NCBI GenBank assembly: GCA_964502885.1 | Contig: CAZCXU010000001.1 | Location: 17,994 to 81,993, forward strand | Source of the DNA: an uncultured Gammaproteobacteria bacterium | GTDB lineage: Bacteria; Patescibacteriota; Microgenomatia; CAZETR01; Amesbacteraceae | Reading direction: 5' to 3' | DNA length: 64,000 bases | In this document: one piece after another, positions 38,145-57,974 of the stretch | Numbering within the stretch: the first letter of the stretch is position 1 | Layout: each line of letters opens with the position of its first letter | Translations under genes and position numbers: made by a program | Notes under the pieces: model-generated | What the model saw: only the letters and a program-made list of their open reading frames with translations | Database searches by the model: none | Told to the model about the DNA's origin: nothing

Positions 38145-39818
38145 TTAAAATCCAGGACCGTTGGCGTGGCCGATCAATGGCTCACGGGTACGTGATAAGC
38201 CGCTTTTACGGAATAAAGCGTGTCGACTGAGTGTCGAAAAAATAGTTCGAAGCTGTTCCACATGGAATAAATATGAAAAAAGCAAATAGACAGCAATGCC
38301 TATTGCCGAACTTATCACTGTTAGCATAAGCAATGGAATGGTGCGAGTGGTATCAAATACAAAACGGTCAAGCAAACGCATAGGAATCCAAAGACTTATG
38401 CCTGAGATCAGACCTGTCACAAATAACTTTCCTACTGAAGTAAAAAAATGAGATAAACTCCAGCGGTCCATTCCTATCCTTCCTGAGAGAATTTGAAAAA
38501 GGATAATACTCTCAATCAGTGATGATGCAGAAATACCTACAGCCAGTCCAAAAATTCCCAAAGACGTAAGATTTACAAGCAATACTGTTATTGATGTATT
38601 AAGAACTGCGCCTGCGATTCCAACCACTAAGGGAGTTTTTGTATCGTGGAGAGCGTAAAAACCACGAATAACCAACTGGGACACAGCTGAAAAGATTGAT
38701 GACAGACAAAGGATTGCAAGTAATTTCCCGGTAGTAATGGTGGCTATCCACGGAAATGACTTGGCACCGAAAACCAAGCGGACAATGGGAATGCGCAGAA
38801 CAATGAAGATAATGGTAATGGGGAGAGCCATAAAAACTATCTGCAAAAGCGAGTCCAAAAGGGTGCGGCGAAATGTCTTTTTGTCTGGTTCAGAAGCCAG
38901 GTGAGACAAAGCCGGAAGGGCAGCCTGGCCAATCGTGACTCCAAAAAGAGAAACAGGCAATGCGTACAGAAGTCTAGCAACATTAAACATCGTCAAAGAA
39001 CCGTGGCTCAATAGAGAGGCCAGTATTACAGCGACTAGCTGCTCTATCTGGTCGATACCCAAAGCCAATGCCCGTGGGGGCAACAGACGAAAAATTTCAA
39101 AAACATGAGGATTTCGGTAATTGAAAGATCTTATGGGGCGAAATCCCAATTTCACCGCAACGGGTATCTGTATGGCCATATGCAAAAATGCCCCAAATAC
39201 GACACCTATCGCCGGACCATAAATTCCCATAATTGGGGATAGAAATAGTGTGCCCATTATGATGCCGAGATTGTAAAGAATGGGAGCGATAGCAGGAATT
39301 AAAAAACGTTGATGCGATTGAATAATTCCTGTCATGAATCCGGAAATGCTGAAAAAAATCTGAGCAACTAACATCACACGAAGTACGCCAGTCATTGTGA
39401 TAATCTGCTGCTCGTTGAATCCGGGAGCTATTAGACGGCTGAGGGGATTGGCGAAGACAAAGATCAAGAGAGAAATTACCACAAATATCGCAAGCACCAG
39501 ATTCAGGGAAGTGCCAGCAACCAGCCAGAGATCCCTATCTTTTTTTGACAAAAGACGGGTGAATACCGGAATAAAAGCCGCTGAAAGAGATCCGATGACA
39601 AGTAATTGGAAGATCGTGTCCGGAATCACAAAAGCTGCGTAATATACGTCCAAAAGAGAAGTCTTGTCACCGAAGAACACACTGATAAGAAGCCTGGTCT
39701 TCAATAGTCCAATAAGATGCGAGGCAGCGAATGTGATCATAATAATGATGGCAGCCGAGAGAATGCTTGTCTGACGACGCAAAAAGAGACTACTTCCGTT
39801 TTTGAAAAGTTCTTTCAT
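38145..39818 (-). CDS. murJ: Lipid II flippase MurJ (MviN)
   Basis: Start at ATG 39818 (MKELFKNGSS...), 558 aa with 14 TM segments. The ORF-track extension to 40040 would run antisense across the whole of rpsT, so it was rejected. Confidence 0.8.
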   Translation of the reverse strand: MKELFKNGSSLFLRRQTSILSAAIIIMITFAASHLIGLLKTRLLISVFFGDKTSLLDVYYAAFVIPDTIFQLLVIGSLSAAFIPVFTRLLSKKDRDLWLVAGTSLNLVLAIFVVISLLIFVFANPLSRLIAPGFNEQQIITMTGVLRVMLVAQIFFSISGFMTGIIQSHQRFLIPAIAPILYNLGIIMGTLFLSPIMGIYGPAIGVVFGAFLHMAIQIPVAVKLGFRPIRSFNYRNPHVFEIFRLLPPRALALGIDQIEQLVAVILASLLSHGSLTMFNVARLLYALPVSLFGVTIGQAALPALSHLASEPDKKTFRRTLLDSLLQIVFMALPITIIFIVLRIPIVRLVFGAKSFPWIATITTGKLLAILCLSSIFSAVSQLVIRGFYALHDTKTPLVVGIAGAVLNTSITVLLVNLTSLGIFGLAVGISASSLIESIILFQILSGRIGMDRWSLSHFFTSVGKLFVTGLISGISLWIPMRLLDRFVFDTTRTIPLLMLTVISSAIGIAVYLLFSYLFHVEQLRTIFSTLSRHALFRKSGLSRTREPLIGHANGPGF

Positions 39819-39861
39819 GTGTGATATTATATGGCGGTTATATTGCAAATAATAGAAGGTT

Positions 39862-40098
39862 ATGCCGATATTACGAAACGCCATCCGCAAGCTGAGATCA
39901 GATAAGCGCAGATCAGCGGTCAACCAGAAAGTAAGAAGAAAAGCCAAGGAGACTGTTTCTTCGATGAGAAAAAAACCGACAGTAAAAACATTGGAATCCC
40001 TGTTTTCAGCTTTAGACAAAGCGGTTAAAGGTAGAGTCATTCACAAAAATAAGGCTGCAAGACTGAAGTCCCGACTTTCCAAGTTGATGAAGAAATAA
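39862..40098 (+). CDS. rpsT: 30S ribosomal protein S20
   Basis: 78 aa. MPILRNAIRKLRSDKRRSAVNQKVRRKAKETVSS...AARLKSRLSKLMKK is a typical S20. AGAAGG lies just upstream of the ATG. Confidence 0.9.
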   Translation: MPILRNAIRKLRSDKRRSAVNQKVRRKAKETVSSMRKKPTVKTLESLFSALDKAVKGRVIHKNKAARLKSRLSKLMKK

Positions 40099-41306: not shown

Positions 41307-41521
41307 AAAAAAGAGGATTAGACAAGGATCTTGTGCTACTATTAATTACGACCTTGATTATGTTGTGTACCTGGGTAGGGCTTGAGGTCTATCGCTCGTA
41401 CGCACATAGCCCCGTAGAGCCCGAGGTGGAGAAACATCTAAAAATGCTTGATCCCACTTTGGATAAAACGGTGTTTTCTTTGTTATCAGAAGAGGAGAAG
41501 AACTCTGATGAGAAACCGTGA
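41303..41521 (+). CDS. Small single-TM protein, hypothetical
   Basis: 72 aa. TM helix LVLLLITTLIMLCTWVGL. Translationally coupled to the PilO-like gene. Its 3-prime end overlaps the next gene. Confidence 0.35.
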   Translation: MKKRGLDKDLVLLLITTLIMLCTWVGLEVYRSYAHSPVEPEVEKHLKMLDPTLDKTVFSLLSEEEKNSDEKP

Positions 41522-42983
41522 GATAAAAATTCCCACACTATTTGGACTGTTGCTGGCAATTGGCGGCCTGGCGAGTGGGATAGTGATGGTACAGAGTCAG
41601 CTGAGACAAAGAGCTGAGGCTGCATCGGCACTTGCACCTAACTCCGTTGTCATTTCAAATGTAACTGAGAATAGTTTTTCAGTGTCATGGACTACCGACA
41701 GGGCTGTAAATGGAAGAGTGGTGTTTTCAAAAAAGGGAGAGAGTGTGTCGAATACAATTGCAGATGATCGCGATCGAGCAAACGGATCGATTGAAACGTA
41801 CTTTACCCACTTTGTAACGGTTGATAATTTGGAGCCACAAACAGAGTATGAGTTTCAGATTAACTCGGGGGGGGAGTTTTTTGGAGTCACAAAAGACGTA
41901 CCGTATCAGATAGCCACTGCAAAGAAGATAGATAGTAAGCCAGATGCAGATGTGGCTTATGGTGAGATAAAGACAGCAACCGGGGAACCGGCGGTTGGAG
42001 CGCTAGTTTATGTTGAAGCTCCCGGAGGAATTGTCCAGTCTACTATCGTTACCAAACAAAGCGGATCTTTTGTAATCCCCTTGTCCACCGTGAGAAAAGC
42101 CGACTTGTCAGGATATCTAGATTATGACCGCTCAAACACTTTGATCACAATCCGAGTTGATAATGGGGCTTTGGGAAAAACCACAGCAACTCTATATACA
42201 TCAGATGATAGCCCTGTCCCTGAATTGGTTCTGGGAAATACATACGATTTTGCTTCCGAGACAGGGAACCGCCAAGAGACAAAATCGTCTGGCATGAACT
42301 ACTCAGATACCCAAACTGACACCCAGACTGAATCAGAATCCCAATCCATTTCAGTGCCTGTTACTGGCCTACAGCTTACTTCCCCCATGGATGGTGAGGG
42401 GGTTAATGCGAATATGCCCGTTATTATCGGGAAAGCGCCGGCAGGAACCGAAATAACTATTGAGGTCCACTCTGAAAATCAAATCAAAACAACTGTGGCC
42501 GCTGATGAAAATGGCACATTTTCATACAATGTAAGTACCCCACTTGAGCCCGGGGAACACACCATTACTATTTCGGCGGTGGTCGGAGGAGTGTTACAAA
42601 GAGTTACAAGAACTTTTACTGTCTATGCTGAGGGGGAAAGTTATTTGCCCGCTTATTCGGCGACTCCTTCAGCGACTTTGGCTCCCTCCATCTTTCCTTC
42701 CCCAACCATTACCAATACTCCACGGCCTACGGCAACCCCACGACCAACGGCAACACCAAGACCAACTAATACACCAAGACCCACAACAACCCCAAAGCCG
42801 GAAATAACTGTTACACCCACCGTGATCCTGCAACCGTCCCCCACTATTGAACCGATAATTTCTCAAGCCCCCGATAATTTGCCGGAGTCCGGCACTCTTG
42901 ACCACTCACTATTATTGATACTATTGGGAGTAGGATTGATACTTTCCGGCGTTTGGTGGCACAAGACTACGACTTTGCGGTAA
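41508..42983 (+). CDS. Secreted surface protein with FN3-like and CarboxypepD_reg-like domains, a Thr/Pro-rich linker and a C-terminal LPESG sorting signal
   Basis: Start at ATG 41508, with a GGAG SD 10 nt upstream (MRNREIKIPTLFGLLLAIGGLASGIVMV signal anchor). FN3-like region (SVSWTTDRAVNGRVVF...LEPQTEYEF). PT repeats TPRPTA TPRPTA TPRPTN TPRPTT TPKP. The C-terminus reads NLPESG followed by a 17-aa hydrophobic stretch and HKTTTLR. Confidence 0.7.
   Translation: MRNREIKIPTLFGLLLAIGGLASGIVMVQSQLRQRAEAASALAPNSVVISNVTENSFSVSWTTDRAVNGRVVFSKKGESVSNTIADDRDRANGSIETYFTHFVTVDNLEPQTEYEFQINSGGEFFGVTKDVPYQIATAKKIDSKPDADVAYGEIKTATGEPAVGALVYVEAPGGIVQSTIVTKQSGSFVIPLSTVRKADLSGYLDYDRSNTLITIRVDNGALGKTTATLYTSDDSPVPELVLGNTYDFASETGNRQETKSSGMNYSDTQTDTQTESESQSISVPVTGLQLTSPMDGEGVNANMPVIIGKAPAGTEITIEVHSENQIKTTVAADENGTFSYNVSTPLEPGEHTITISAVVGGVLQRVTRTFTVYAEGESYLPAYSATPSATLAPSIFPSPTITNTPRPTATPRPTATPRPTNTPRPTTTPKPEITVTPTVILQPSPTIEPIISQAPDNLPESGTLDHSLLLILLGVGLILSGVWWHKTTTLR
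42716..42799 (+). repeat. Imperfect 18-nt tandem repeat of about 4.7 copies, encoding (TPRPTx)n inside the surface protein
   Basis: ACTCCACGGCCTACGGCA / ACCCCACGACCAACGGCA / ACACCAAGACCAACTAAT / ACACCAAGACCCACAACA / ACCCCAAAGCCG. Confidence 0.6.
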
Positions 42984-44692: not shown

Positions 44693-46355
44693 AAATACTG
44701 ACACGGGGATGGTCATACACAGTATATGACTCATCGGCATAGTCATCTACTAAGCTTATGCCAATGGGACAATCTGATATGTTTTCCGCAATTCTGCCAT
44801 AATGAAGAGCCGGCGGTACAATACAGTAATTTATGAATGGAATGGGAAGATTGGGACGGGAAGTAAAAGAACGGACGTGAACAAATGGAGAATTGCCTAA
44901 AAACAGCTTAGAGTAAAAAAGACTTGATTGAGGGTAAAGCTTGGGAACTGTTGAAATGGAGCCATAAAGCCGGTTGCTTGATAGTATGAGATAGTCCAAC
45001 GAGGCTAGTTTTTTATCTAAATTTTGCCACTTTTCGGGACTATCAGGTTCATAAAAAGGCAATTCAATAACTTTAAAACGTCCGTCATTGATTAGCGGCA
45101 GACAGTCGTCCCAATACTCACAACTCAAAGTTGATCCTGATGGGATGTTCTCATAAATCCAGGAGCTGGCTTGAACCCGAGTGTGTGGAACAGAATAAAT
45201 AGACAAAAACATAACTCCAGGCAAAACCATAATTACTGAGGCCGCAACAGATAAACCCAATCGTTTTTTTGTAAACAAGGGGACAAGAAATGGGCCGGCG
45301 ATAATTGCAGCCAGAGGAAGAATTGGATAAAAATAACGCAACGGCCTAGCAAATTGAATATCCTGAAACACAAACAAAATTATGACCATTATTGCTAAGA
45401 TGCGAGGTAAAGAATCTTTACCCACAAGGAAGCGGGCGAGCGAGAAAAGGATAATTACTGAAAGAAACGGACCTACGCCGACAAAGAACAAATTGGGGAG
45501 AGAGTAAGTCAATGGTTTTGTTTCAAACCACTGAACGGACGGGGGAAACATTACTTCTTTTTTTTCTAAAGACTTAAGAGTGTTCAGATTTGCAATTATT
45601 TTCGGATTGGGATGTATTAAATTGATGAAGTAATATGGTGCAGCTAGGCGAAAAGTGATTAAGCTCGATAATCCAAATAGAAATAAATTAATCACCACAG
45701 TTTTCCACCCCACATCCCGCTTTTTAATAAGTAACAAAAGGACGAAAAAAGGGGTGAATGCAATGGCTGAAACTTTGGAGGCAAGTGCGAGGGCGAAAGA
45801 CGCTCCTCCCACTACAGACAACCATCTTTGAGAAGTGTTTTGAGAAAGACGCAGGAGGAGATAGAGTGCAAGCAACAAAAAGGACACCAGAAAAGTATCT
45901 ACTGCAAAAAAGTGCGACAACTGGATGGGAATAACCAATGACGCATATACAAATGCCGACAACATACCACTTTTCCAGCTGGAGAATATAAATCTTGCAA
46001 CAAGAAAGACCAAAATGACGATAACGGTATCCAGTACCGCTGAGATACTTCGACCTACCAGCGGTAGGGAAAAATATGAGTCCATCCCAAGAACTGAAGC
46101 GAGCGATTTTGTCAAAATAACTGGGTACGTACCATAGACATAGAAATCGTGTCCCGCATTGTGAGGATTGCTTTTAGATCCGGACGTGGACAGGTAATCC
46201 GATAAGGAAGATGGAAGATTTATCGACTGACTGACCATGACCAAAAAACGTTCATCTGGATGAAGATGTTGCCCCTGGTCCCAGTTCAATCCCCAAAAAC
46301 GACTAATGACAACGAAAAGCAGCAATAGTGCCCAAGATAACACTTTCATCCTCAT
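44661..46355 (-). CDS. GT-C membrane glycosyltransferase, PMT/ArnT-like (GT39/GT83 family)
   Basis: 564 aa, polytopic. The first extracytoplasmic loop carries HPDERFL, the DE motif of PMT/ArnT enzymes. Translationally coupled to the upstream membrane gene by a 4-nt overlap. Confidence 0.7.
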   Translation of the reverse strand: MRMKVLSWALLLLFVVISRFWGLNWDQGQHLHPDERFLVMVSQSINLPSSLSDYLSTSGSKSNPHNAGHDFYVYGTYPVILTKSLASVLGMDSYFSLPLVGRSISAVLDTVIVILVFLVARFIFSSWKSGMLSAFVYASLVIPIQLSHFFAVDTFLVSFLLLALYLLLRLSQNTSQRWLSVVGGASFALALASKVSAIAFTPFFVLLLLIKKRDVGWKTVVINLFLFGLSSLITFRLAAPYYFINLIHPNPKIIANLNTLKSLEKKEVMFPPSVQWFETKPLTYSLPNLFFVGVGPFLSVIILFSLARFLVGKDSLPRILAIMVIILFVFQDIQFARPLRYFYPILPLAAIIAGPFLVPLFTKKRLGLSVAASVIMVLPGVMFLSIYSVPHTRVQASSWIYENIPSGSTLSCEYWDDCLPLINDGRFKVIELPFYEPDSPEKWQNLDKKLASLDYLILSSNRLYGSISTVPKLYPQSSLFYSKLFLGNSPFVHVRSFTSRPNLPIPFINYCIVPPALHYGRIAENISDCPIGISLVDDYADESYTVYDHPRVSIFKNSTKSSTF

Positions 46356-47965
46356 AGACAGTTGCGGGAGACTGAGTAAATTTTCTGATTCCCTAACGGA
46401 GAGATGTAATCCGCAATAAACTCATCATTCCAAAGGGGCCAATTTACAGGAAGAAAGTCTTCAGGTTGAGTATTCAGCTCGACATAGTCAATTGATCGTG
46501 TGATCAAGCGGTTGCAGGCATCATGTTTGGATGTTGAGGAATAAATTGCTGCTGTATCATTTTCCCTATCAGTCTGATCATATCCGTAAGACCACGTGAA
46601 GTAAGGATAACCGTTATATATTTTCCTTCCGGCCAAAGAAGCCGGATGGTAAAACCAAGTACTGTTTAAGACGACAGAGTCAGCGGCAGTCTTGAGGAGA
46701 AAAAAATTTGCAACAGGATCGCGATTGTAATCGGGGATGTGAAGACGAATATCATTTTTAATCGGAAAATAATCTACAACACCGCCAGAGATCAAGGCGA
46801 CAAATATGGTAGTGGCTAGAATCTTGTATCTTGTGTCCCTATGCAAAAATTTAACAATCAAGTTGGCTGAAAAAACTCCTGCAATAGTTAAGAAGAAGTT
46901 AAGAAGTTTGTGGTTGTTTATAATATCCGGGGACAACTGAAATGTATAAGCCAACAAAAAAATCGTAAGAGCCGGAAGAATAATCAATCTTGAGCATTTG
47001 GGAGCAAAATAAAGACCAACTGGCAAAAGAACAAAATGCAAACCATAGTTGTAAATCGCGTACTTAGCCAACGAGAATATAGTTATCGGCGGTGGTGTCA
47101 AAAAACCAAAGTTAAGGGAGACTGACGAAGACACGTTAACGGTTAATAGATATAGAATTAACCAAGGGATAGCTCCCAACAGGGATACAAACAAAAACAA
47201 ACGCTCCGGACGCAGAATGAGAGCCCACAAATAAAAGACAGCGCCAATTATGAAAGCGGCCTGATTGAGCAGTAATAAACTTCCAAGCAGAAAGCCGGAT
47301 ATCAATTTGCTGCGAGTGTTTGGGATATATAGCAAATAAACAAGGATAATTGTGGTGGCGAATGCCAATCCCAAATGCCTCTGGTTGGTAAAAATGTTAA
47401 GATTCCAAAAGGCAGAAACTTCTCCTCCATCCCAAGGACCAAATGAGACAAATTTTGAACTGTGAATTAACTGATCGAGATATCCAGATAAAGATGAAGC
47501 GCTCTGAATAAATATGGGTAAAGTAAGAGAGGAATTAAAAAAAATAAACACCATAGCCACGATCCCTACAAGAAATGACCGAAAAAGACGAGACGCAAAA
47601 ATTCCCAAACCCAAAGCGAAAGCACATAACCCCAATGCGCTTTGAACATTAAGGGCAATATCAATCCTCAACCCTAGTCGCTCAAGCACCCCAACAAAAA
47701 GATAAAAAAGATAGTGGTACCTGATTGGCTCTCCTGGAAAAAGTGGATACTGGGGCGGCCAGTTGACGGCAGCAGAAAATGAACGAATTAGGGGTATGTG
47801 ACTACCAAAGTCACTGTAAGCTTTTGAGGCAATTAGCAGATCTCCGTCATCCGAATAGGTAAAAGTATGAAACATTAACCAAAAACAAAAAATAAATACT
47901 GCCAGGATGGCAAGTGGCCACAATATATACCTACTGTTATGTGTAAGCTTTTTCAACATCAACAT
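46352..47965 (-). CDS. Polytopic membrane protein, putative GT-C-type glycosyltransferase of unknown family
   Basis: 537 aa. At least 12 TM segments in the N-terminal two-thirds and a soluble C-terminal domain. It is the first gene of a 2-gene operon with the GT39-like gene. Confidence 0.45.
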   Translation of the reverse strand: MLMLKKLTHNSRYILWPLAILAVFIFCFWLMFHTFTYSDDGDLLIASKAYSDFGSHIPLIRSFSAAVNWPPQYPLFPGEPIRYHYLFYLFVGVLERLGLRIDIALNVQSALGLCAFALGLGIFASRLFRSFLVGIVAMVFIFFNSSLTLPIFIQSASSLSGYLDQLIHSSKFVSFGPWDGGEVSAFWNLNIFTNQRHLGLAFATTIILVYLLYIPNTRSKLISGFLLGSLLLLNQAAFIIGAVFYLWALILRPERLFLFVSLLGAIPWLILYLLTVNVSSSVSLNFGFLTPPPITIFSLAKYAIYNYGLHFVLLPVGLYFAPKCSRLIILPALTIFLLAYTFQLSPDIINNHKLLNFFLTIAGVFSANLIVKFLHRDTRYKILATTIFVALISGGVVDYFPIKNDIRLHIPDYNRDPVANFFLLKTAADSVVLNSTWFYHPASLAGRKIYNGYPYFTWSYGYDQTDRENDTAAIYSSTSKHDACNRLITRSIDYVELNTQPEDFLPVNWPLWNDEFIADYISPLGNQKIYSVSRNCL

Positions 47966-48040
47966 ATTCTAACCCGGGAATGGCAACTAATGAACTATTT
48001 ATGGTCATATCAAAATAGTATGACTTGATATCTCACTCAA

Positions 48041-48073
48041 ATATCGGACATTTTGTCTTCTGTTCGCTATAAT
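48041..48073 (+). promoter_or_regulatory. Promoter module upstream of the YYY gene, homologous (about 27 of 32 positions) to the tandem module upstream of the FemAB pair
   Basis: ATCGGACATTTTGTCTTCTGTTCGCTATAATT compared with ATCTGACATTTAGTTTTGTGCTCGCTATAATT. The -35-like GGACA is followed by a 17-nt spacer and TATAAT at 48068-73. TATAAT is 6 nt before GTG 48080. Confidence 0.45.
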
Positions 48074-48079
48074 TAAACG

Positions 48080-50179
48080 GTGGAATACGGCGAATTGTTT
48101 AAGTGGTGGGCAACAGTGTTTATTCTGGGGTGGGCGGCTTGGCCCTTGGCCAGCAAATTGTTTGAGAGCTTTCCAGGACGTGGGTATTTACTGGCCAAGG
48201 GTATGGGTTTAATACTAGTAAGCTTCGCCGTCTGGGTACTCGCCAGCCTGAAAATTGCAGAATTTGGAGTATCTTCAGTGTGGTTTTTTTGTCTTTTAAT
48301 GGCAGTTTTGGCATGGACACGAATGAAAAATCCCCTAACCAAGAATTGGCGTGAGGTCATGTGGTTGGAGATGATTTTTGCGATCGTATTTGTAGGGTGG
48401 TCCTGGATAAAAGCTCACGAACCGAGCATTAATGGGCTGGAAAAATTTATGGATTATGGTTTTGCCATGGCGATTAATAACTCTACACACTTTCCACCTC
48501 CGGATATCTGGTTCTCCGGACAACCGATTAACTACTATTACTTCGGACATCTGATGTTGGCAGTGTTGAGTAAGTTGTCCACCGTGAATTTGGATTATGG
48601 TTTTAACTTGATGCTCGCTACTATCGCCGCCTTTTGTTTTACGATCTCATATTCAATAGGCCATTATCTGGCACGTTCCCTAGATAGGAGCAAACAAACG
48701 CTGTTGGCACTTCTGGTAGCAGTGCTGGTTACTTTTTCGGGAAACCTACATACTATTTATGCATTTACCAAGGGGTACTGGGGTGAGGAAAACCCGCCGG
48801 CGTTTTGGACAATTCTGGCGCCCTTGTCGGATCTAAGTCTATCTTTTGGGAATTACTGGTATCCAAATGCGACGAGGTTTATACCGTTTACAATCCATGA
48901 GTTCCCCAGTTATTCATTTGTGGTATCCGATATCCATGGCCATGTACTATCTATACCAGTAGCACTGCTGCTGATAGCATTGTTTTTAAAAATTTATCAG
49001 CAGAAGGAAAGACGTTCAGGTATAGATATTGCGGTATATGCATTTGGATGTGGAATTGCGTTTATGACAAACGCCCTGGATGGATTGATATACATATGCC
49101 TACTGGGATTTACAATAGCTGTCCAAGAATTTGAAATTTGGAGACAGACAAAAAAAGTTAATTACCCGGCACTGATCAAAATTGGAGTAGTGGGGACGGT
49201 AATGTTTTTTTTAACAACAGGATTATTTCTTGCAAACTTTGAATCGTTTGTCTCTGGGGTGGCAGTCAATTGTCCACCTGCGGCGTGGGTGGGCAAAAAA
49301 GTCGGCCCGCTCATATTTGAAACGGCAGATAAATGTCAAAAGTCCCCCATTTGGATGATGCTTATTCTTTGGGGATTTTTTGTATATAACTTTATCGGCT
49401 TGTACTGGCTTATAGACGAGAAAGAGCAATTCAGAAAGATTGCGATTATAAGTTTTGTGTTTTCAGGCTTGTTAATTCTATTCCCTGAATTTTTTTACTT
49501 CAAAGATATTTATCCACAACACTTCCGCAGTAACACAATGTTCAAACTTGGATATCAAGCTTTTATGCTCATGTCTATCTGGTCCGGATGGGTGATTGTA
49601 AAAATCTATCAGGTGAAACTTCGAACCTGGAAGCACAAGATATTTTTGATCGGAACTGTTCCCCTACTGGTATTGGTGCTTATTTATCCATATTTTTCGG
49701 TTAAATCATACTTTAATTCATTAAATGAAAATAAAGGCTTGTCGGGAACCTCCTGGTTACAACAAAAGTACCCAGAAAACTGGGCAGTCATTAGATGGCT
49801 ACGGCAGACGATAACCGATCCCCACACGGTGGTTTTGGAAGCACAAGGCGATAGTTATCAGGATCCGGTATCGGGAAAACCATATAACCAAATTTCCACC
49901 TTTACAGGACTGCCTACCGTTGCTGGATGGTTTGTACACGAGTGGCTATGGAGGGGCTATGAATCAATCGCTCTCAGGGCCGCTGATGTGAGAACCATTT
50001 ACGATTCCCCCGATATTGAGACTACTAGAACGTTAATAAAAAAATACGAGATCAAATACATAGTTGTTGGGGAAATGGAAAGAGAAAAATATCCGACGCT
50101 AAAACAGGAAAAGTTTGAAAAATTAGGAGGAAGAGTGGTTTATTCAGCGGGCAATACAAGCATCTACAAAATTGACTAA
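48080..50179 (+). CDS. YYY-domain (Chlor_Arch_YYY/DUF2298) polytopic membrane protein, GT-C/oligosaccharyltransferase-like
   Basis: 699 aa. More than 12 TM segments. Signature GQPINYYYFGHLM. Large C-terminal soluble domain. The apparent start is GTG 48080. Confidence 0.65.
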   Translation: MEYGELFKWWATVFILGWAAWPLASKLFESFPGRGYLLAKGMGLILVSFAVWVLASLKIAEFGVSSVWFFCLLMAVLAWTRMKNPLTKNWREVMWLEMIFAIVFVGWSWIKAHEPSINGLEKFMDYGFAMAINNSTHFPPPDIWFSGQPINYYYFGHLMLAVLSKLSTVNLDYGFNLMLATIAAFCFTISYSIGHYLARSLDRSKQTLLALLVAVLVTFSGNLHTIYAFTKGYWGEENPPAFWTILAPLSDLSLSFGNYWYPNATRFIPFTIHEFPSYSFVVSDIHGHVLSIPVALLLIALFLKIYQQKERRSGIDIAVYAFGCGIAFMTNALDGLIYICLLGFTIAVQEFEIWRQTKKVNYPALIKIGVVGTVMFFLTTGLFLANFESFVSGVAVNCPPAAWVGKKVGPLIFETADKCQKSPIWMMLILWGFFVYNFIGLYWLIDEKEQFRKIAIISFVFSGLLILFPEFFYFKDIYPQHFRSNTMFKLGYQAFMLMSIWSGWVIVKIYQVKLRTWKHKIFLIGTVPLLVLVLIYPYFSVKSYFNSLNENKGLSGTSWLQQKYPENWAVIRWLRQTITDPHTVVLEAQGDSYQDPVSGKPYNQISTFTGLPTVAGWFVHEWLWRGYESIALRAADVRTIYDSPDIETTRTLIKKYEIKYIVVGEMEREKYPTLKQEKFEKLGGRVVYSAGNTSIYKID

Positions 50180-51231
50180 GGTTTCCCCAAACTGGTGCTC
50201 ACGAAGTTAAAAATTTCAGTGAATTTTGAGTCTTTTGGAATGAGCACCCACTGATTCTGATATTTTGCCGAAAGAGGAGGATTGATCAAAAGCCCAGAAT
50301 CAATTAGCGAAATCTGACGAACGGGAGCACTTCGAAGTTTCATGGCCGCCTGAAAAAGTGTGGAATAGTAAGGGCTCTCAATGTCAGAGGAAACACTATC
50401 GGCAGCAAGAGCCACTAAACTTTTGTATATGGAGGTATTTTTGAGATTATTAAGCGACAGCAGTTTGTCGGCAAAACCCCTAAGAACTTTGGTCTGACGC
50501 TTTGAACGGGCAAAGTCGGTCCCCTCTTCCACGTCCTCTGAATGCCGGGAGCGAACAAACTTAAGAGCCATCTCTCCATCCAGATGGGCGTCCCCAGCCT
50601 CAAAGGTGATACTTTCATAACGACAGGAGTATTTAATATCACCCCCACAAGTGTCGTTTTCTCTACCAGGGATAGGATACAGATTGTCAGTAAAAGTCTT
50701 ATCTATGGTTATATCTACGCCGCCAATAATATCTATGGCTTTAGAAAACGTGGAGAAGTCTATGTTGAGAGCGAAATGAACCGGTTGATTTATTACCTCA
50801 GTGACTGCAGCTTTTGCCATAAGGAGTCCTCCAGCAGTTGCTGCCTTTTCATATCCAAAGAAATAGGCATGATTTATCTTTGCTTTAAGTGAGTTTACCC
50901 AGAGGTCGCGAGGAATTGGAATAAGAGCTATATCTGGGGAATTTTGATTTACAGAAATAAAAATCATAGTGTCCGAGAGATTTGATCCGTCATGGCCTTC
51001 GCCACCAGAACCAAGAATCAAGAAATTAGTACGACCACCCGACTGAGGAAGTGGGCGACCGGTTACCATTTCCCAAGTCAAATGTCGACCTGAGGTACGC
51101 TCAAAAAGAAAGTAACCACCGATTAGAACCGAGGCGGTAAGTCCTAATATGAGGATCCTTGCCAGCCAAACATGGGACAGCAATTGGCGTTTGAACCGAT
51201 TGTAAAAAGAACCAATTCTGCTAATCTGCAT
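50176..51231 (-). CDS. LytR-CpsA-Psr (LCP) family glycopolymer-to-peptidoglycan ligase
   Basis: Start at ATG 51231 (MQISRIG...); the ORF-track TTG at 51273 is less likely. N-terminal TM segment. LCP core TNFLILGSGGEGHDGSNLSDTMIFISV...IPRDLWV. Confidence 0.8.
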   Translation of the reverse strand: MQISRIGSFYNRFKRQLLSHVWLARILILGLTASVLIGGYFLFERTSGRHLTWEMVTGRPLPQSGGRTNFLILGSGGEGHDGSNLSDTMIFISVNQNSPDIALIPIPRDLWVNSLKAKINHAYFFGYEKAATAGGLLMAKAAVTEVINQPVHFALNIDFSTFSKAIDIIGGVDITIDKTFTDNLYPIPGRENDTCGGDIKYSCRYESITFEAGDAHLDGEMALKFVRSRHSEDVEEGTDFARSKRQTKVLRGFADKLLSLNNLKNTSIYKSLVALAADSVSSDIESPYYSTLFQAAMKLRSAPVRQISLIDSGLLINPPLSAKYQNQWVLIPKDSKFTEIFNFVSTSLGKP

Positions 51232-51250
51232 ATATGTATTTTTAAGGAGT

Positions 51251-53113
51251 ATGGAGATTTTAACCGAACTCAATCCAGTTCAACAAGAAGCGGTAAGTTT
51301 TGATACCAATACCCCGCTGGCGATTTTGGCCGGAGCGGGCAGCGGAAAAACTAGAATCCTTACACATCGAGTGGCATATTTTGTTAAGGAACTGGGGATA
51401 GACAGACAAAACATATTGCTACTGACTTTTACAAACAAAGCTGCAGGAGAAATGTTGTACCGGGTTTCGAAACTGACCGGGGATGCTGCCAGATCGGGCA
51501 TAGCGGGGGGGACTTTTCATAGCTTTGGCGTTAAAGTGCTGAGAGAGTTTGGTGGAGTTGCGGGAATTCGGGCAAATTTTTCTATATTCGATGAGTCTGA
51601 CCAGTTGGATACTATTAAAAGAGCGATGGAGTCTGGTGGAGTTGACCCTAAAACAGTCAAGCCATCAAGTGTGGCTGGGGCTATTTCGGAAGCAAAGAAT
51701 AACCTTATCTCACCCAATGACTATGCTTCTTTTGCGAGAGGGAGTTTTTCACAAGGAGTGGCAAAAGTATATCTTGTTTACGAACAAATGCTTCGCAGAT
51801 ACAATGCATTTGATTTTGATGATTTACTTGTCCGATCCGTACAACTCATCAAAACCTATCCACAAGTGAAACAGGCATTGCAGGAAAGATACACACATAT
51901 ATTGATTGATGAGTACCAAGATACGAATAAGGCCCAATATGAACTTACAAAGATGCTCGCCGAACCGGGGCACCTAACCGTAGTGGGAGATGCGTCACAA
52001 GCCATTTATTCATGGAGGGGAGCAGATTACAAAAATTTGCTGTATCTCAAACAGGATTTTCCGAACTTAAAAGTTATCCGACTGGAGCAAAATTATCGCT
52101 CTACACAAAACCTACTTGACGCGGCAAATGCCGTCATAGCGAAAAATACCTCTCATCCCATACTGGAATTGTGGACGGAAAATCCGACTGGGGAAAAAAT
52201 TAAAATAACTGAATACCCTTCTGAATACGAAGAAGCACGAGCCATAGCCGACGAAATCAATGTCCTTTCCCAGATGAAAAAGACTTCACTGCAGGATGTG
52301 GCGGTTTTGTATAGAACAAATGCGCAATCTCGGGTATTAGAGGAGGCACTGCTCCAAGCAGGCATTCCATATCACCTGGTGGGGGGTGTGAGATTTTATG
52401 AGAGAAAAGAAATAAAAGACGTATTGGCTTATGCAAAAATATTGGTAAACCCAAGCGATGAAGTATCCAGAAAACGAGCTGGGAAACTGGGCAAAGCTCG
52501 GTTGGCACGGCTAGAAGAGAAGAAAATTGATGTCACGCGATTTACCACTCTGGAAGTTTTATCTCAAATATTTAAGTTGACCGGGTATCTGGAAACATAT
52601 GACAGCAACAGCGAGGAGGACGCGGTGAGACTTGAAAATATTGACGAGCTTAAGAGCGTAGCTTTGCTGTATCCCAAGATCGATGAGTTCCTGCAGCAAA
52701 TTACTTTGACAGAAAAGGAGGCTAAGAAAAAAATGGGCAGATCAAGGAATGAAATGGGGGCTGTCACCATGATGACTTTACATGCTTCTAAGGGGCTTGA
52801 ATTTGATGTGGTTTTTCTGGTGGGAATGGAGGAAGGATTGTTTCCTCACAGCAGAGCATTAAACGACCCGGAACAGATGGAGGAAGAGAGAAGATTGTGT
52901 TATGTAGGGATGACCAGAACACGCAAAAAACTTTATATCACCTATGCCAGAAACAGGCTTATTTTTGGACAAAGATCGCCGGGGATCGTGTCCAGATTTG
53001 TGGCAGATATTCCAGAAAAAGTAATTGATAATTTCCAGGTACTTCTTACGGCAAAAAAAGTTGATCAAAGCTGGGGATTTGATGAAAACGGAGAGTGGCG
53101 GTGGCAACCTTGA
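51251..53113 (+). CDS. UvrD/PcrA-family DNA helicase, compact
   Basis: 620 aa. LNPVQQEAVS...LAGAGSGKTRIL (motif I), DEYQDTN (II), and the remaining helicase motifs, ending in the 2B/C-terminal region. Confidence 0.9.
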   Translation: MEILTELNPVQQEAVSFDTNTPLAILAGAGSGKTRILTHRVAYFVKELGIDRQNILLLTFTNKAAGEMLYRVSKLTGDAARSGIAGGTFHSFGVKVLREFGGVAGIRANFSIFDESDQLDTIKRAMESGGVDPKTVKPSSVAGAISEAKNNLISPNDYASFARGSFSQGVAKVYLVYEQMLRRYNAFDFDDLLVRSVQLIKTYPQVKQALQERYTHILIDEYQDTNKAQYELTKMLAEPGHLTVVGDASQAIYSWRGADYKNLLYLKQDFPNLKVIRLEQNYRSTQNLLDAANAVIAKNTSHPILELWTENPTGEKIKITEYPSEYEEARAIADEINVLSQMKKTSLQDVAVLYRTNAQSRVLEEALLQAGIPYHLVGGVRFYERKEIKDVLAYAKILVNPSDEVSRKRAGKLGKARLARLEEKKIDVTRFTTLEVLSQIFKLTGYLETYDSNSEEDAVRLENIDELKSVALLYPKIDEFLQQITLTEKEAKKKMGRSRNEMGAVTMMTLHASKGLEFDVVFLVGMEEGLFPHSRALNDPEQMEEERRLCYVGMTRTRKKLYITYARNRLIFGQRSPGIVSRFVADIPEKVIDNFQVLLTAKKVDQSWGFDENGEWRWQP

Positions 53114-53136: not shown

Positions 53137-53260
53137 AATGACTATATATCTTGCACAAAATCTGACATTTAGTTTTGTGCTCGCTATAAAGTCATGACGA
53201 GACAGAAAATGACTATATATCTTGCACAAAATCTGACATTTAGTTTTGTGCTCGCTATAA
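53137..53260 (+). repeat. Perfect 53-bp direct repeat of 2 copies with a 71-bp period. Each copy contains an 8-bp inverted repeat and a promoter-like module.
   Basis: Copy 1 at 53137-53189 and copy 2 at 53208-53260 are both AATGACTATATATCTTGCACAAAATCTGACATTTAGTTTTGTGCTCGCTATAA. Inside each, GCACAAAA-N12-TTTTGTGC. Confidence 0.85.
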
Positions 53261-53267: not shown

Positions 53268-54248
53268 ATGGAGAGCTGGGTTGAGGCAGATTTTGACCAT
53301 AAGAATGAGTGGAATGCACTAGCAGGACATCCGTTACAGTCCTGGGAATGGGGAGAGTTTAGAGGAAAAAGACAAAAAGTTAGTCGGCTGGCTCTATCAG
53401 ATGGAGGTAACTACAAAAGAGTTATCAATGTGATCTGGACCCGGCTGGGAAGGCTGCCATGGCAAATCGGATATGCACCCATGATAAAGCTGCCAAATAA
53501 ACAAGATCTATCTGGTCTTATCGCTGCCGCAAAAGCCAACCGAGCAATATTTGTGAGAATCGAACCTCTTCCGGGCCAGAATGGACTGGAGCTACAAGAA
53601 TTTGAACAGATAAAGGGAGAGCTAAAAACCGGCAGATCATTGTTTAAAAAGAAAACTCGGGTTGTAAACCTAACTTTAAATGAAGAGGATCTACTTAAAC
53701 AAATGCATCCTAAAGGCAGATACAATATTCGGGTAGGATTAAAGCACGGGGTGAAAGTCAGTCAGGAAACAGATTTGGACAGTTTCAATAAGTATTTGCA
53801 GTTAATGTTTTCCGGAACTGCAAAACGGCAAAAAATTTTTATGCATAATTATACGTACCATCAGCAGATGTGGGATAGTTTGAGCGGATCAGGGATAGCC
53901 AAACTATTTCTTGCAAGAGTCGGCAAGGACGCGGTGGCGGCGGCAATTCTATATTGCTTTAAAGAAACCGCTTATTATGCTTATGGGGCGTCTGAGCTTG
54001 AACATAAAGAGGCAATGGCACCTACCGGGTTGTTGTGGGAAATGATTAGGTGGGCCAAGAGCAAAGGATTCAAATATTTTGATATGTGGGGAAGCGAAAG
54101 CGGAAAAGGTTTCTCCAGATTTAAGGAGCAATTTGGAGGCAATGAGATAGAGTTGCCTGGAAGTTTTGATTTACCAACCAGCCCGCTATATCGATTATTT
54201 AGAATTGCAGAAGAACTCAGGTGGAAAATAATTCACAACTGGAAGTAG
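53268..54248 (+). CDS. FemAB-family peptidoglycan interpeptide-bridge aminoacyltransferase (FemX-like)
   Basis: 326 aa. N-terminal Q-S-W-E-W-G-E-F pattern. LFLARVGKDAVAAAILYCFKETAYYAYGAS...GLLWEMIRWAKSKGFKYFDMWG is the FemAB GNAT-like acceptor region. Confidence 0.7.
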   Translation: MESWVEADFDHKNEWNALAGHPLQSWEWGEFRGKRQKVSRLALSDGGNYKRVINVIWTRLGRLPWQIGYAPMIKLPNKQDLSGLIAAAKANRAIFVRIEPLPGQNGLELQEFEQIKGELKTGRSLFKKKTRVVNLTLNEEDLLKQMHPKGRYNIRVGLKHGVKVSQETDLDSFNKYLQLMFSGTAKRQKIFMHNYTYHQQMWDSLSGSGIAKLFLARVGKDAVAAAILYCFKETAYYAYGASELEHKEAMAPTGLLWEMIRWAKSKGFKYFDMWGSESGKGFSRFKEQFGGNEIELPGSFDLPTSPLYRLFRIAEELRWKIIHNWK

Positions 54249-55069
54249 TCGAAGACTTAAGACAAACAAAAGAATACGGAGAATATATGGAGTCTTTGGG
54301 GTGGAAAGTCGCTGAATTAGGCAGGTGTGGCAAAATATTTCTTCGGCCATTGGGGCCCTTAAAACTCGCTAAGTTTCAGAGGTTTACAAAAATTCCGGAG
54401 ATTAACCTTTTGGATGAGCTAATGAATAAAGAGCGGGTGGTCATGTGCAAGTTAGAGCCAAGTGAAAAAATACAAGAAACCGAGTTGAACAGTTTTACTG
54501 CGGCTGGATTTAAAAAAGACAAATGGCCACTGCTTGCCAGCAAGACTTTAAGAGTTGACCTACGACCCGCGACTGAGGTTATTTTTTCAAAATTTAAAAA
54601 GGATGCCAGGTACTGCATACGTAAGGTGCAGGAGGATAGGTACAAGATAAGTGACGATGACACTGAGCTGTTTTATTTTATATGGAAAAAAAGTTCGAAA
54701 CGAAAAAATCTATGGATCCCAAGTAAAAACGAATATGATAATTTTGTCAGAGTGTGGGGGAAAAAAGTTCTTTGTATAACGATAGGCGAAATGGCGGGGG
54801 TGGTAATTATTGTCCACAAACAGACGGCTTTTTATTACTATGCGGGGGCAACAAAAGAAGGAACGGACAAGAACCTCCCCTATTTAGCGGTGTGGTCTGG
54901 AATGCAAGAAGCCAAGAAACGAGGCGCAAAGACGTGGGATTTTGAGGGCATCTTTGATACCCGATGGCCGAACAAGAGATGGCTGGGTTTTTCTCATTTC
55001 AAGAAAAGTTTCGGGGGGCAGGATGTGGAATATCCCGGTTCATTTGAAAAATGGCGATGGCCATTTTAG
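54221..55069 (+). CDS. Second, shorter FemAB-family paralog
   Basis: 282 aa. YGEYMESLGWKVAELG N-terminal pattern. VVIIVHKQTAFYYYAGATKE...LAVWSGMQEAKKRGAKTWDFEGI. Overlaps the upstream paralog by 28 nt. An alternative start is ATG 54287. Confidence 0.6.
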   Translation: MENNSQLEVVEDLRQTKEYGEYMESLGWKVAELGRCGKIFLRPLGPLKLAKFQRFTKIPEINLLDELMNKERVVMCKLEPSEKIQETELNSFTAAGFKKDKWPLLASKTLRVDLRPATEVIFSKFKKDARYCIRKVQEDRYKISDDDTELFYFIWKKSSKRKNLWIPSKNEYDNFVRVWGKKVLCITIGEMAGVVIIVHKQTAFYYYAGATKEGTDKNLPYLAVWSGMQEAKKRGAKTWDFEGIFDTRWPNKRWLGFSHFKKSFGGQDVEYPGSFEKWRWPF

Positions 55070-55070
55070 G

Positions 55071-57974
55071 CTATGGTTCAGAAATTGAGAGGTCGCACAG
55101 ATAGTGATAGTCGCATCCTGACTGACATATTTGAGACTGTGAGCATGTGAAATCTGATCTAGATATCTCTTCTGCCTTTGCCAAGATTTCAGCTTTGGCT
55201 CTTTCGAGTTGATCAGCTGTCAGAACAACACTAACTTTTTCCTGGGTATCGAGATAGTAAAGTGAAAGCTTTATTTTATCGATCGACTTTCCATACGGAT
55301 GGCAGGTAAGACCGGTGGCCGCCAGTGCGTAAAATGATAACTGCAAATTCGATTGTGCCTCCTTTGGGGTTAGGTGTTTTGAGCTGGTTTTATAATCAAT
55401 AATCTCCAGGGAACCATCTGGGAGTATATCGACCCGGTCAATTTTTCCACCTACAGTTATCATGCCCAGCGGCAACTTAAAATTGTCTTCAAGTCTCAGA
55501 ACCTGGGAGATAGGAGGGGTGTTTTCCAAGAATTCAGTTAAATACTGCTTGCCCTTGGCAAAATATAGATTAGCATGGGCCGCATTCTCATAACCGACTT
55601 TTATCCAGTTTTTGGCGTAGAGCTCAAAGATGTTTGGATTTAGGGAAGACTTTAGATCAGTGAAATATTCATTCAATGTCTTATGTATGGTATTGCCAAA
55701 GCTTGAGGCAGCAGAAGGAGGAGAGGAAATTTTTAATATATATTTAGCTTTATAGTGGAGAGGGCAAGTATCAAATGTCTGGATCTGCGAATAACTTAAG
55801 TAGGCCACCTTGTGCAGTGGTGTTGTCGAATGTATTTTGGACACTTCTTTGGGCGCAAAATGCCAATCAAGAAGCGGAAGTTGAGTTGACGGCTGAGCCG
55901 CCGACAAAGCTGTTTCAAGCGAGCCGTACATCTCAGAAATAAATTGGGAAATTTTCCTAGTTCTTTTACCCAGTCCATATATATCAGAACTGGTGGTAAA
56001 AAGTCGTTCTTTGGCGCGGGTGATAGCGACATAAAAAAGCCGACGTTCTTCGTATAGATGCTGATCAACAGTCGGCAGGCTTTCCTTAATAAGATTCTCG
56101 GGAATAGGAAACGAATCTTTCCTGTCTTGTGACGGGAAACGTCCGGAAATCAGATTTACCACAAACACAACCGGAAACTCCAACCCCTTGGAAGCGTGAA
56201 CTGTTAGAATATTTACTACATCCGCAGTCCCCCATTCTTCATGCGAAGAGGCAGTAGTATCTGATATTAACTGTGAATTTTCTACCCATACCAAGGTATC
56301 GGCAACCGTAACAATGCCCAACTCTTCAAGGTTTTTCAGCTGGTTGAAAAAGTTGAATATATTTATTGCTTTGTCAGCATCGGAACTGGTACCAGCGTTT
56401 AATAATGATTCCAATCTACCAAAATGCCTAAGATATTCGTAAAGAAGCTGTCCGGAAGACTGGGAAAGTGATTCGCGGGTCTGTTTATCTATGAGCGCCA
56501 ATAGTGCCGAAATACTCTTTTCCGATGCCGGTGAGAGCTTGTCTGCCTGGCCATCCAGAGATCGGCAATATTCAATAAGAGACTGCTGCTGAGCAGCAGC
56601 CAAATTTGTGAGAGCATACAGTTCCTTTGGCTGAAGTCCCACTTCAGATGAGGAGAGAAGACGAAAGAATGCTTGGTTATCATGCGGGCTTTGAATTATC
56701 TGTAGGTATGCGATCAGATCTTTTACTTCTGGTGTCTCCAACAACCGAGATTGGCCAAGAAACTGAAACGGTATGTTGAAACGTTTGAATGCGTCGGTAA
56801 AAAGGTGGGCGTGTGAATTCGCCCTGACTAGCACAGCAAAATCCTTATATGAATAATGCCCAGGTTCATCTTCCATCAGCTCCTTAATCTTTTGGACCAC
56901 TGCAAATGCTTCGTCTGCGCCCCGGGAAAAGTGCATATGTTGCGGCGCGATAGTACGCCCACGATTGACAGCGATCAGGTGTTTGTCGATATTGGCCTGA
57001 GATTCGAGACGGTAGGGATTATTGAACTGGATCAGACGATAAGCCGCGTCGAGGATGGGCTGAGAAGAACGGTAATTTTTTGTAAGAACAATTACCTTTG
57101 CGGCAGGATACTGTGACTGGAAACTTAGGATGTTTGTTAGAGATGCTCCCCGCCAGCGGTAAATAGCCTGATCATCATCAGCCACGACAGTAAGATTTGG
57201 CGAGGAGCCGGCTAACAAACCAACTAGATGATTTTGAGCGAAATTTGTGTCCTGGAATTCATCAACCAAGATGTATTTATATTTATGTTGATACTTTTTA
57301 AGAATATTTGGGCGTTTTTGGAATAAAACCAAACTGTAATAAATTAGGTCGGAAAAGGTAAACAGGCCCTTTGACTGCTTAAGTTTTTGAAAGAAATCAT
57401 AAGATCTGGATAGTTCCTGATATCTTAGCTTTTCCAGCTCAACATCCTGACCCACGGGAGATATGGAGAACTGATTGTTAACCCATTGGATATATTCGCC
57501 AGGAGAAATATTCTCATCCTGAAGCCGATCGATGTGGGAAAGCAGGTCGGTAACAAATTTGTATGGATTACCCAGGGGACGGAAATAATCAAGCTCCAAC
57601 TCAAAAAAATGTTTGGTGAGCAAAGCCGCTGATTCAGAAGTGGTCATAAGAGTGTAGTTTGGATCCAGACCAATCTCGACCAACTCAGACCGAAGAATGC
57701 GATCACAAAAAGAGTGGAATGTAGTGGCCTGAGGAAGAGATGAGGTGAGCGGGAAAGCTGTCTCAAGTCGAGATTGCATTTCAGCGGCGGCCTTATCGGT
57801 GAATGTTAAGGCGAGAATCTCCTCTGAGCGAGCAAGCCCCGACTCAACCAAAAACTTTATTCTCTCGATAATTACCGTGGTTTTGCCGGTACCCGCCCCG
57901 GCGACAATCAGCAGCGGACCAGAGCCAAAACTGACCGCTTCCAACTGACGTTCATTTAATTGTGATTGAGGCAT
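55071..57974 (-). CDS. UvrD-family helicase with a fused C-terminal PD-(D/E)XK, Cas4/AddB-like nuclease carrying four Cys
   Basis: 967 aa. The N-terminus LNERQLEAVSFGSGPLLIVAGAGTGKTT and DEFQDTN identify the helicase. The C-terminus carries C-x-C...C-x5-C (CPLHYKAKY...CSQSQICQSGCDYHYLC), typical of Fe-S RecB-family nucleases. Confidence 0.8.
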   Translation of the reverse strand: MPQSQLNERQLEAVSFGSGPLLIVAGAGTGKTTVIIERIKFLVESGLARSEEILALTFTDKAAAEMQSRLETAFPLTSSLPQATTFHSFCDRILRSELVEIGLDPNYTLMTTSESAALLTKHFFELELDYFRPLGNPYKFVTDLLSHIDRLQDENISPGEYIQWVNNQFSISPVGQDVELEKLRYQELSRSYDFFQKLKQSKGLFTFSDLIYYSLVLFQKRPNILKKYQHKYKYILVDEFQDTNFAQNHLVGLLAGSSPNLTVVADDDQAIYRWRGASLTNILSFQSQYPAAKVIVLTKNYRSSQPILDAAYRLIQFNNPYRLESQANIDKHLIAVNRGRTIAPQHMHFSRGADEAFAVVQKIKELMEDEPGHYSYKDFAVLVRANSHAHLFTDAFKRFNIPFQFLGQSRLLETPEVKDLIAYLQIIQSPHDNQAFFRLLSSSEVGLQPKELYALTNLAAAQQQSLIEYCRSLDGQADKLSPASEKSISALLALIDKQTRESLSQSSGQLLYEYLRHFGRLESLLNAGTSSDADKAINIFNFFNQLKNLEELGIVTVADTLVWVENSQLISDTTASSHEEWGTADVVNILTVHASKGLEFPVVFVVNLISGRFPSQDRKDSFPIPENLIKESLPTVDQHLYEERRLFYVAITRAKERLFTTSSDIYGLGKRTRKISQFISEMYGSLETALSAAQPSTQLPLLDWHFAPKEVSKIHSTTPLHKVAYLSYSQIQTFDTCPLHYKAKYILKISSPPSAASSFGNTIHKTLNEYFTDLKSSLNPNIFELYAKNWIKVGYENAAHANLYFAKGKQYLTEFLENTPPISQVLRLEDNFKLPLGMITVGGKIDRVDILPDGSLEIIDYKTSSKHLTPKEAQSNLQLSFYALAATGLTCHPYGKSIDKIKLSLYYLDTQEKVSVVLTADQLERAKAEILAKAEEISRSDFTCSQSQICQSGCDYHYLCDLSISEP

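Follow-up and report, generated by a model that had tools for sequence, protein, structure and literature searches.

An overlapping pair of FemAB-family genes in a Microgenomates genome, predicted to encode two catalytic transferases

Two adjacent genes of the FemAB family, here referred to as FemL and FemS, occupy positions 53268..55069 of a 64,000-nucleotide (nt) stretch of Microgenomates DNA (the window; GenBank assembly GCA_964502885.1, contig CAZCXU010000001.1, positions 17,994 to 81,993 of the forward strand). Judging from sequence conservation and structure models, both copies very probably encode catalytic Fem-type aminoacyl-tRNA transferases. The family assignment, the fold, the presence of the catalytic Phe-Lys pair in both proteins, the overlap of the two genes, and the conservation of the pair across Microgenomates are all directly supported. 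Our preferred reading, to which we assign a probability of roughly 55%, is a sequential scheme in which FemL would initiate and FemS would extend a peptidoglycan side chain by tRNA-dependent additions.

Two overlapping genes of the FemAB family

FemL (53268..54248, + strand) starts with ATG and encodes a 326-amino-acid (aa) Fem-type transferase, the proposed initiator. FemS (54221..55069, + strand) starts with GTG and encodes a paralog of 282 aa, 44 residues shorter, which is the proposed extender. A preliminary description of this DNA, made from the sequence alone, had proposed two FemAB-family open reading frames (ORFs) in tandem and taken them for paralogs. Both are present on the plus strand at exactly these coordinates, and BLASTP aligns their products at 25% identity over 217 aa (E, 1e-16), a relationship also recovered by profile-profile comparison (probability of 99.7%). 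As read from the sequence, the 3' end of FemL and the 5' end of FemS overlap by 28 nt (54221..54248, + strand). The GTG at 54221 is the sole ATG, GTG, or TTG between an in-frame TAG at 54200 and a conserved DLRQ motif at FemS residue 12. Because it is the only possible start after that stop codon, the overlap is genuine and not an artefact of ORF calling. The two genes probably share a transcript and are probably translationally coupled.

Both proteins match the Pfam family FemAB (PF02388), FemL at 98.9 bits (E, 3.7e-28) and FemS at 59.2 bits (E, 4.4e-16), above its gathering score of 24 bits. PF02388 is also carried by all listed homologs, which come from Candidatus Amesbacteria, Woesebacteria, Gottesmanbacteria, Collierbacteria, Shapirobacteria, and other Microgenomates/Patescibacteria. 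Acetyltransf_6, which scores 52.4 bits in FemL and stays below its cut-off in FemS, is the sole further Pfam family to exceed its cut-off. No Pfam match to the aminoacyl-phosphatidylglycerol synthase C-terminal domain (MprF/DUF2156) was found in either protein; both are short stand-alone proteins and not flippase fusions. Among NCBIfam models, the best match for both is the PEP-CTERM-associated FemAB family TIGR03019 (FemL, 48.6 bits and E of 5.6e-13; FemS, 37.4 bits and E of 1.4e-9).

The AlphaFold2 models, built from input alignments of 45 and 46 sequences, have predicted local distance difference test (pLDDT) scores of 95.5 for FemL and 94.8 for FemS and a predicted template modeling score of 0.91 each. 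In Foldseek searches of the PDB, the best match of FemL is Staphylococcus aureus FemX (6SNR; E, 1.3e-21; template modeling [TM] score, 0.80), and Weissella viridescens FemX (TM, 0.76-0.78), the aminoacyl-tRNA-dependent peptide synthases Sbb17/Sba18, and FemA are also recovered. The ranking for FemS is the same, with 6SNR at an E of 4.7e-17, Sbb17 (9wqx) at 6.7e-16, and Weissella FemX at about 1e-15. The top 11 PDB matches of each model are all Fem or Fem-like transferases (TM, 0.67-0.80). MprF-type aminoacyl-phosphatidylglycerol synthases rank below every Fem match (TM, 0.56-0.62; E, about 1e-10), and ordinary tandem GNATs rank lower still. A profile search of PDB sequences agrees in retrieving 6SNR (1.1e-33) and 1NE9 (3.4e-15) with the FemL family and 1NE9 (3.4e-06) with the FemS family. 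The preliminary description had left room for a non-Fem GNAT identity, which is ruled out: FemAB tops Pfam for both proteins, structures of MprF-type proteins and ordinary tandem GNATs resemble the models clearly less closely, and no such family outscores FemAB either by profile or by predicted fold.

FemL is a double-GNAT protein without a coiled-coil insert. The first β-strand of FemL and its long C-terminal helix (residues 307-325) have no counterpart in the FemS model, which keeps both GNAT lobes. The staphylococcal-type coiled-coil arm (~60 residues, in lobe 2) is absent from both AlphaFold2 models, which places FemL and FemS with the compact Weissella FemX type. By profile, fold, and catalytic motif, then, the two proteins belong to the FemAB family, and they fall outside the FemX and PEP-CTERM-FemAB equivalogs and outside the coiled-coil staphylococcal type.

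The pair is conserved well beyond the present genome. A scan with a FemS profile, taking one genome per species, found 149 genomes, from which 80 loci were kept. When all ORFs were scored with hidden Markov models, they fell into two clean groups: FemL proteins score at least 261 bits against their own profile and at most 105 against the other, and FemS proteins score at least 190 and at most 155 bits, respectively. In 64 of the 72 loci that hold both copies, the distance from the FemL stop codon to the FemS residue-12 motif downstream of it is under 100 nt (2-15 nt in most cases), so the genes there abut or overlap. The copies are 0.1-3.8 kb apart in 8 loci, no FemL is present within 5 kb in 4, and a contig end cuts the locus in 4 more. 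The short subfamily comprises 323 clusters at 50% identity (E ≤ 1e-30). Since the split into two orthologous groups and the conservation of the pair are lineage-wide, the duplication is older than the Microgenomates radiation, with both copies under constraint. Two FemS-type genes, in loci L079 (4992-5894) and L083 (5016-5906), have unusually high cross-scores against the FemL profile (147-155 bits), with FemL absent from the 5 kb around them; these could represent intermediates or single-copy forms and might shed light on the origin of the pair.

Catalytic and acceptor-site residues

The closest architectural counterpart is Weissella viridescens FemX, a UDP-MurNAc-pentapeptide:L-alanine transferase (1NE9, 4II9) of ~330 aa that likewise consists of two GNAT lobes without a coiled-coil insert. 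It aligns with FemL over residues 24-307 (E, 3.4e-15; TM, 0.78), at an identity of only 16-17%. We used its numbering, transferred through a profile alignment that reproduces the published Lys36, Asn38, and Trp39, and counted conservation across one genome per species (71 FemL and 79 FemS sequences, with the FemS Phe-Lys pair counted over the 77 that have no gap there). In FemX, Phe304 stacks on the 3' end of the tRNA. Phe304-Lys305 corresponds to F285-K286 in FemL and F260-K261 in FemS, and Asp108-Pro109 corresponds to E99-P100 and E79-P80. Lys305 is regarded as the sole reactive residue in the FemX active site (PMC12945691). In FemL, F285-K286, E99-P100, R187 (Arg205 in FemX), H193 (Arg211), Y197 (Tyr215), and Y239 (Tyr256) are invariant in 71 of 71 species. 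Among the FemS orthologs, all 77 counted for the pair carry F260-K261, all 79 carry Y205, and E79-P80, D240, and E242 are conserved; the FemS equivalents of Arg205 and Tyr256 are R161 and Y207, and that of Tyr215 is either E171 or Y172. A basic helix opens lobe 2 in both proteins (FemL K149/R151/R155/K159; FemS K127/R130/R134/K135).

A comparison with FemX had been proposed in the preliminary description as the way to judge each paralog, and it finds the catalytic Lys kept in both and the Asp108 equivalent replaced by Glu in both. The outcome that would have refuted that description, catalytic residues missing from both copies, is thus not what is seen, and for the short copy such a loss is ruled out by the 77 of 77 count for F260-K261. 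The small size of FemS also has a precedent among active enzymes. Sbb17/Sba18 (9WQW-9WQY), of which 285-288 residues are resolved, are as compact as FemS, match its model as well as FemX does (E, about 1e-16; TM, 0.73-0.75), and are deposited as active synthases with bound substrate, so a short double-GNAT Fem-like protein can be catalytic. They differ from FemS in that their acceptor is streptothrisamine, an antibiotic precursor, in actinomycete secondary metabolism, and at the sequence level they do not match the FemS profile significantly (E, 0.33).

The two groups differ systematically at acceptor-site residues. In FemX, Lys36 and Arg211 bind the phosphates and the D-Ala-D-Ala of UDP-MurNAc-pentapeptide (PMC2655667), and the corresponding residues of S. 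aureus FemX are likewise Lys and Arg. FemL has R32 at the Lys36 position (Arg in 68 of 69 sequences and Lys in 1 of 69) and H193 at the Arg211 position. The present FemS has E32 and P167; the column of residue 32 holds Lys or Arg in 53 of 79 orthologs, and P167 is found in 69 of 79. The register at the FemS N terminus was set by a motif shared across the family alignment (RQSxYG...GW). We rejected the register given by hhalign, which puts FemL W28 opposite FemS Y19 and is shifted by 9 residues relative to that motif. Under either register, the Lys36 position of the present FemS is nonbasic (M23 by hhalign, E32 by the motif). The combination of E32 and P167 fits a different acceptor for the second enzyme.

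A sequential scheme and its alternatives

In the scheme that we favor, FemL and FemS would each transfer an amino acid from aminoacyl-tRNA to an amino group of a cell-wall precursor. FemL would place the first residue on the side-chain amine at position 3 of the stem peptide, and FemS would add the next residue onto the FemL product, i.e., onto an already modified stem. The product would be a short side chain for cross-linking and possibly also an anchor point for sortase substrates. The initiating, FemX-like role is assigned to FemL because the basic residue that would hold the precursor (R32) is conserved, and the extending role is assigned to FemS because its acceptor pocket has lost those contacts. 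We infer the tRNA dependence, the peptidoglycan acceptor, and the length and composition of the bridge, and the proposed order of action is drawn from residue patterns only.

Known systems offer partial models for such a division of labor. The closest functional analogy comes from Streptococcus pneumoniae, where MurM and MurN, encoded by adjacent genes, add the first and the second residue of a dipeptide branch. There, too, an adjacent initiator and extender build a two-residue branch, and the proposed likeness is one of function. The preliminary description had likened the tandem to the stepwise FemA/FemB system of staphylococci, and the arrangement of adjacent paralogs does resemble known stepwise pairs. 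S. aureus FemX, FemA, and FemB (6SNR, 1LRZ), which are lipid II glycyl transferases and include the adjacent paralogs of the femAB operon, suggest by that adjacency a stepwise extension of the bridge here as well, and FemX is the best match for both proteins in sequence as well as in structure. They differ from the present pair in their low identity (15-19%) and in a coiled-coil arm of ~60 residues (6SNR residues 235-297), around which the FemL profile alignment to 6SNR splits, skipping chain residues of about 235-283; the pair described here is a long/short one with overlapping reading frames. An antiparallel coiled-coil domain has been described for Fem factors and is present in the model of MurM (bioRxiv 10.1101/2020.06.18.158840), which sets MurM apart from FemL and FemS too.

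The wider context fits a Gram-positive-like wall with a side chain for cross-linking and anchoring, since genes for a LytR-CpsA-Psr (LCP) protein, MurJ, and a protein with a sorting signal lie nearby. Sortase is near-ubiquitous in Microgenomates, and envelopes of the candidate phyla radiation (CPR) look Gram-positive-like (PMC6744442); the near-ubiquitous sortase fits both a branched peptidoglycan and the use of the side chain as a protein anchor.

Several observations weigh against the sequential scheme. Neither protein reaches the curated cut-off of TIGR03019 (260 bits), and against the FemX equivalog NF047883 (UDP-MurNAc-pentapeptide-lysine N6-alanyltransferase) FemL scores 41.6 bits for a cut-off of 500, with no match for FemS. 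Of the eight substrate-contact residues of FemX, only about half are kept in FemL; Arg211 is replaced by His in FemL and by Pro in FemS, and the two acceptor contacts (Lys36 and Arg211) taken together are partly kept in FemL and absent from the present FemS. The immediate syntenic neighbors are DNA helicases and not mur genes, and the stem-peptide type (MurE specificity), the transpeptidases, and the sortase of this genome lie outside the window. The putative peptidoglycan acceptor and the predicted branched-stem wall are suggested by family resemblance.

Some of these points would also suit an acceptor other than the stem peptide. One or both enzymes might aminoacylate a wall glycopolymer (LCP, GT-C, and GT4 genes are nearby), a membrane lipid, or a small molecule, a reading that we regard as unlikely. 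PEP-CTERM-associated FemAB, Sbb17/Sba18, VlmA, and DhpH are precedents for Fem-like proteins that do not act on peptidoglycan. The PEP-CTERM/XrtA-associated FemAB family, like FemL and FemS, lacks a coiled coil, and for both proteins it is the top NCBIfam match, slightly ahead of FemX and, at 48.6 and 37.4 bits, far below its cut-off. For FemS, FemX and the streptothrisamine-acylating Sbb17/Sba18 are equally good matches, and FemS lacks the equivalents of Lys36 and Arg211 that bind the nucleotide precursor. Synteny with an LCP gene is seen in 55 of 83 loci, and just upstream are genes for DUF2298, PMT_2, and GT4 proteins. Against such an acceptor, however, the match between the FemL profile and S. 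aureus FemX, a lipid II:glycine transferase, is full length and, at an E of 1.1e-33, much better than that to any nonpeptidoglycan enzyme. FemAB beats Acetyltransf_6 in Pfam for both proteins, and Lys36 (as Arg), Tyr215, and Tyr256 all have equivalents in FemL. The fold of the MprF-type lipid aminoacylases is clearly less similar, and a lineage-wide, housekeeping, single-locus pair is unlike a natural-product cluster.

Alternatively, both enzymes might act on peptidoglycan precursors in parallel, either by adding different amino acids at one position or by building an alternative bridge that shields the wall from a bridge-specific murein hydrolase. The catalytic pair is kept in both proteins, Fem-like immunity proteins against murein hydrolases have been reported (bioRxiv 10.1101/2024.09.27.615381), and the Lys or Arg in column 32 of most FemS orthologs implies that many of them may still bind the unmodified precursor. 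Yet the tight coupling and strict co-inheritance of two anciently diverged groups favor obligatory joint action, and the systematic difference in acceptor-site residues (H193 versus P167) also speaks against parallel action, which we judge to be somewhat less probable than a nonpeptidoglycan acceptor.

More speculative again, and doubtful at present, is the idea that FemL and FemS form an obligatory Microgenomates-specific module in which FemS, with its remodeled contacts to the precursor phosphates (Pro at the Arg211 position), acts on a new acceptor, for instance membrane-located lipid II modified by FemL or an LCP-attached wall polymer. If this were true, the product of the module would be a lineage-defining wall chemistry that serves both as a sortase anchor and as self-protection against the murein hydrolases of the cell itself or of its host.

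Finally, the preliminary description had suggested that FemS may be an accessory or noncatalytic partner of FemL, and such an accessory or scaffolding role, which its shorter chain (without the N-terminal strand and C-terminal helix of FemL), the lack of a basic residue at the Lys36 and Arg211 positions in the present genome, and the overlap of the genes (which would suit production in fixed proportion, e.g., for a complex) could be taken to favor, is very improbable given the invariant Phe-Lys pair, the conserved Y205, E79-P80, D240, and E242, a complete double GNAT fold modeled at high pLDDT, active Fem-like enzymes of the same size, and an active-site motif that is intact in a subfamily of 323 clusters.

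Under the sequential scheme, a coupled pair of apparently active Fem transferases predicts branched (indirectly cross-linked) peptidoglycan in ultrasmall bacteria, like that of many Gram-positives, and a reduced genome would spend charged tRNA on wall synthesis. The pair also offers a concrete and cheap biochemical test in a group that is not culturable alone. Stepwise-acting adjacent Fem paralogs are already well known (femAB and murMN), the gene type is an ordinary, annotated one, and public records already label such CPR proteins as FemA/FemB family. Among the papers listed by a literature search combining CPR or Patescibacteria with FemAB or FemX, none mentions both in its main text, the sole record found being a row in a supplementary table. 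That table (Méheust et al. 2019, Supplementary file 4) flags as "enriched" a family of 2446 proteins with FemAB+Acetyltransf_6, and the same row gives the figures 1428 and 183, which are probably the counts of CPR and non-CPR genomes; the main text of that paper does not discuss the family. The searchable literature holds no measured Microgenomates wall chemistry. To this, the present analysis adds the division into a long and a short orthologous group, the conservation of the overlap and of a block that includes LCP and two helicases, and the differences at the acceptor site. The finding refines and does not overturn present understanding.

Genomic neighborhood and upstream element

The pair is flanked by helicase genes. 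Directly upstream of FemL is a UvrD/PcrA-like helicase gene (51251..53113, + strand; PF00580, 273.7 bits), and a gene for an AddA-like UvrD helicase-nuclease (55071..57974, - strand; PF00580 and PF12705) converges on FemS, with its stop codon 1 nt from that of FemS. The LCP gene (50176..51273, - strand; PF03816, 95.6 bits) is divergent and lies two genes upstream of FemL. The modal order across related loci is LCP(-), UvrD(+), FemL(+), FemS(+), UvrD/AddA-like(-). Of the 83 related loci, 82 have a UvrD-family ORF next to the pair, and an LCP homolog is present within 5 kb of it in the 55 loci counted above. The upstream helicase gene of some relatives runs up to or into the start of FemL. Simple frozen synteny may account for the placement of wall enzymes between two DNA helicases.

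The preliminary description had also pointed to an LCP ligase and a sorting-signal protein in the vicinity, and both are borne out. The latter is a secreted surface protein of 511 aa (41448..42983) with fn3/Ig-like domains and a Pro/Thr-rich stalk. Its C terminus combines LPESG with a hydrophobic segment and a basic tail, a sortase-type sorting signal in which Ser replaces the usual Thr. MurJ is encoded at 38145..40040. Upstream of the LCP gene, at 44661-50179, lie genes for large membrane proteins: a DUF2298 protein (699 aa), a PMT_2/GT-C glycosyltransferase, and a 536-aa protein without a Pfam match. Together with a GT4 gene in the window, this run suggests a wall-glycopolymer or protein-glycosylation locus. 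Housekeeping genes in the window include a ribosomal protein cluster and those for EF-G/EF-Tu, DnaK/GrpE/HrcA, FtsK, RNase J, and PNPase. Within the window, we found no genes for a sortase, MurE, or penicillin-binding proteins and no tRNA gene or Rfam element, including near the pair, and a Pfam scan of window ORFs detected no exosortase or PEP-CTERM domain.

The 154-nt spacer upstream of FemL holds two perfect 53-nt direct repeats with a spacing of 71 nt (53137..53260, + strand), for which the chance expectation is 0. Each copy is an imperfect palindrome with 23-nt arms and a 12-nt loop. The second copy contains CTGACA-17-TATAAT, a near-consensus sigma-70-like element with an 11/12 promoter match that ends 6 nt before the FemL ATG; because the promoter-like element ends so close to the start codon, the FemL mRNA is suggested to be leaderless or nearly so. 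The 53-nt element has no exact match in metagenome contigs, and no comparable repeat was found upstream of FemL in 45 related loci; it is specific to the present genome.

A Microgenomates-type locus of this kind also occurs in many genome records whose titles read "uncultured Gammaproteobacteria," "Nevskiaceae," "Pseudomonadales," "Bathyarchaeia archaeon," or "Nanoarchaeia archaeon." Since the gene content and synteny of the loci match Microgenomates, such names appear to be placeholders or taxonomically incorrect.

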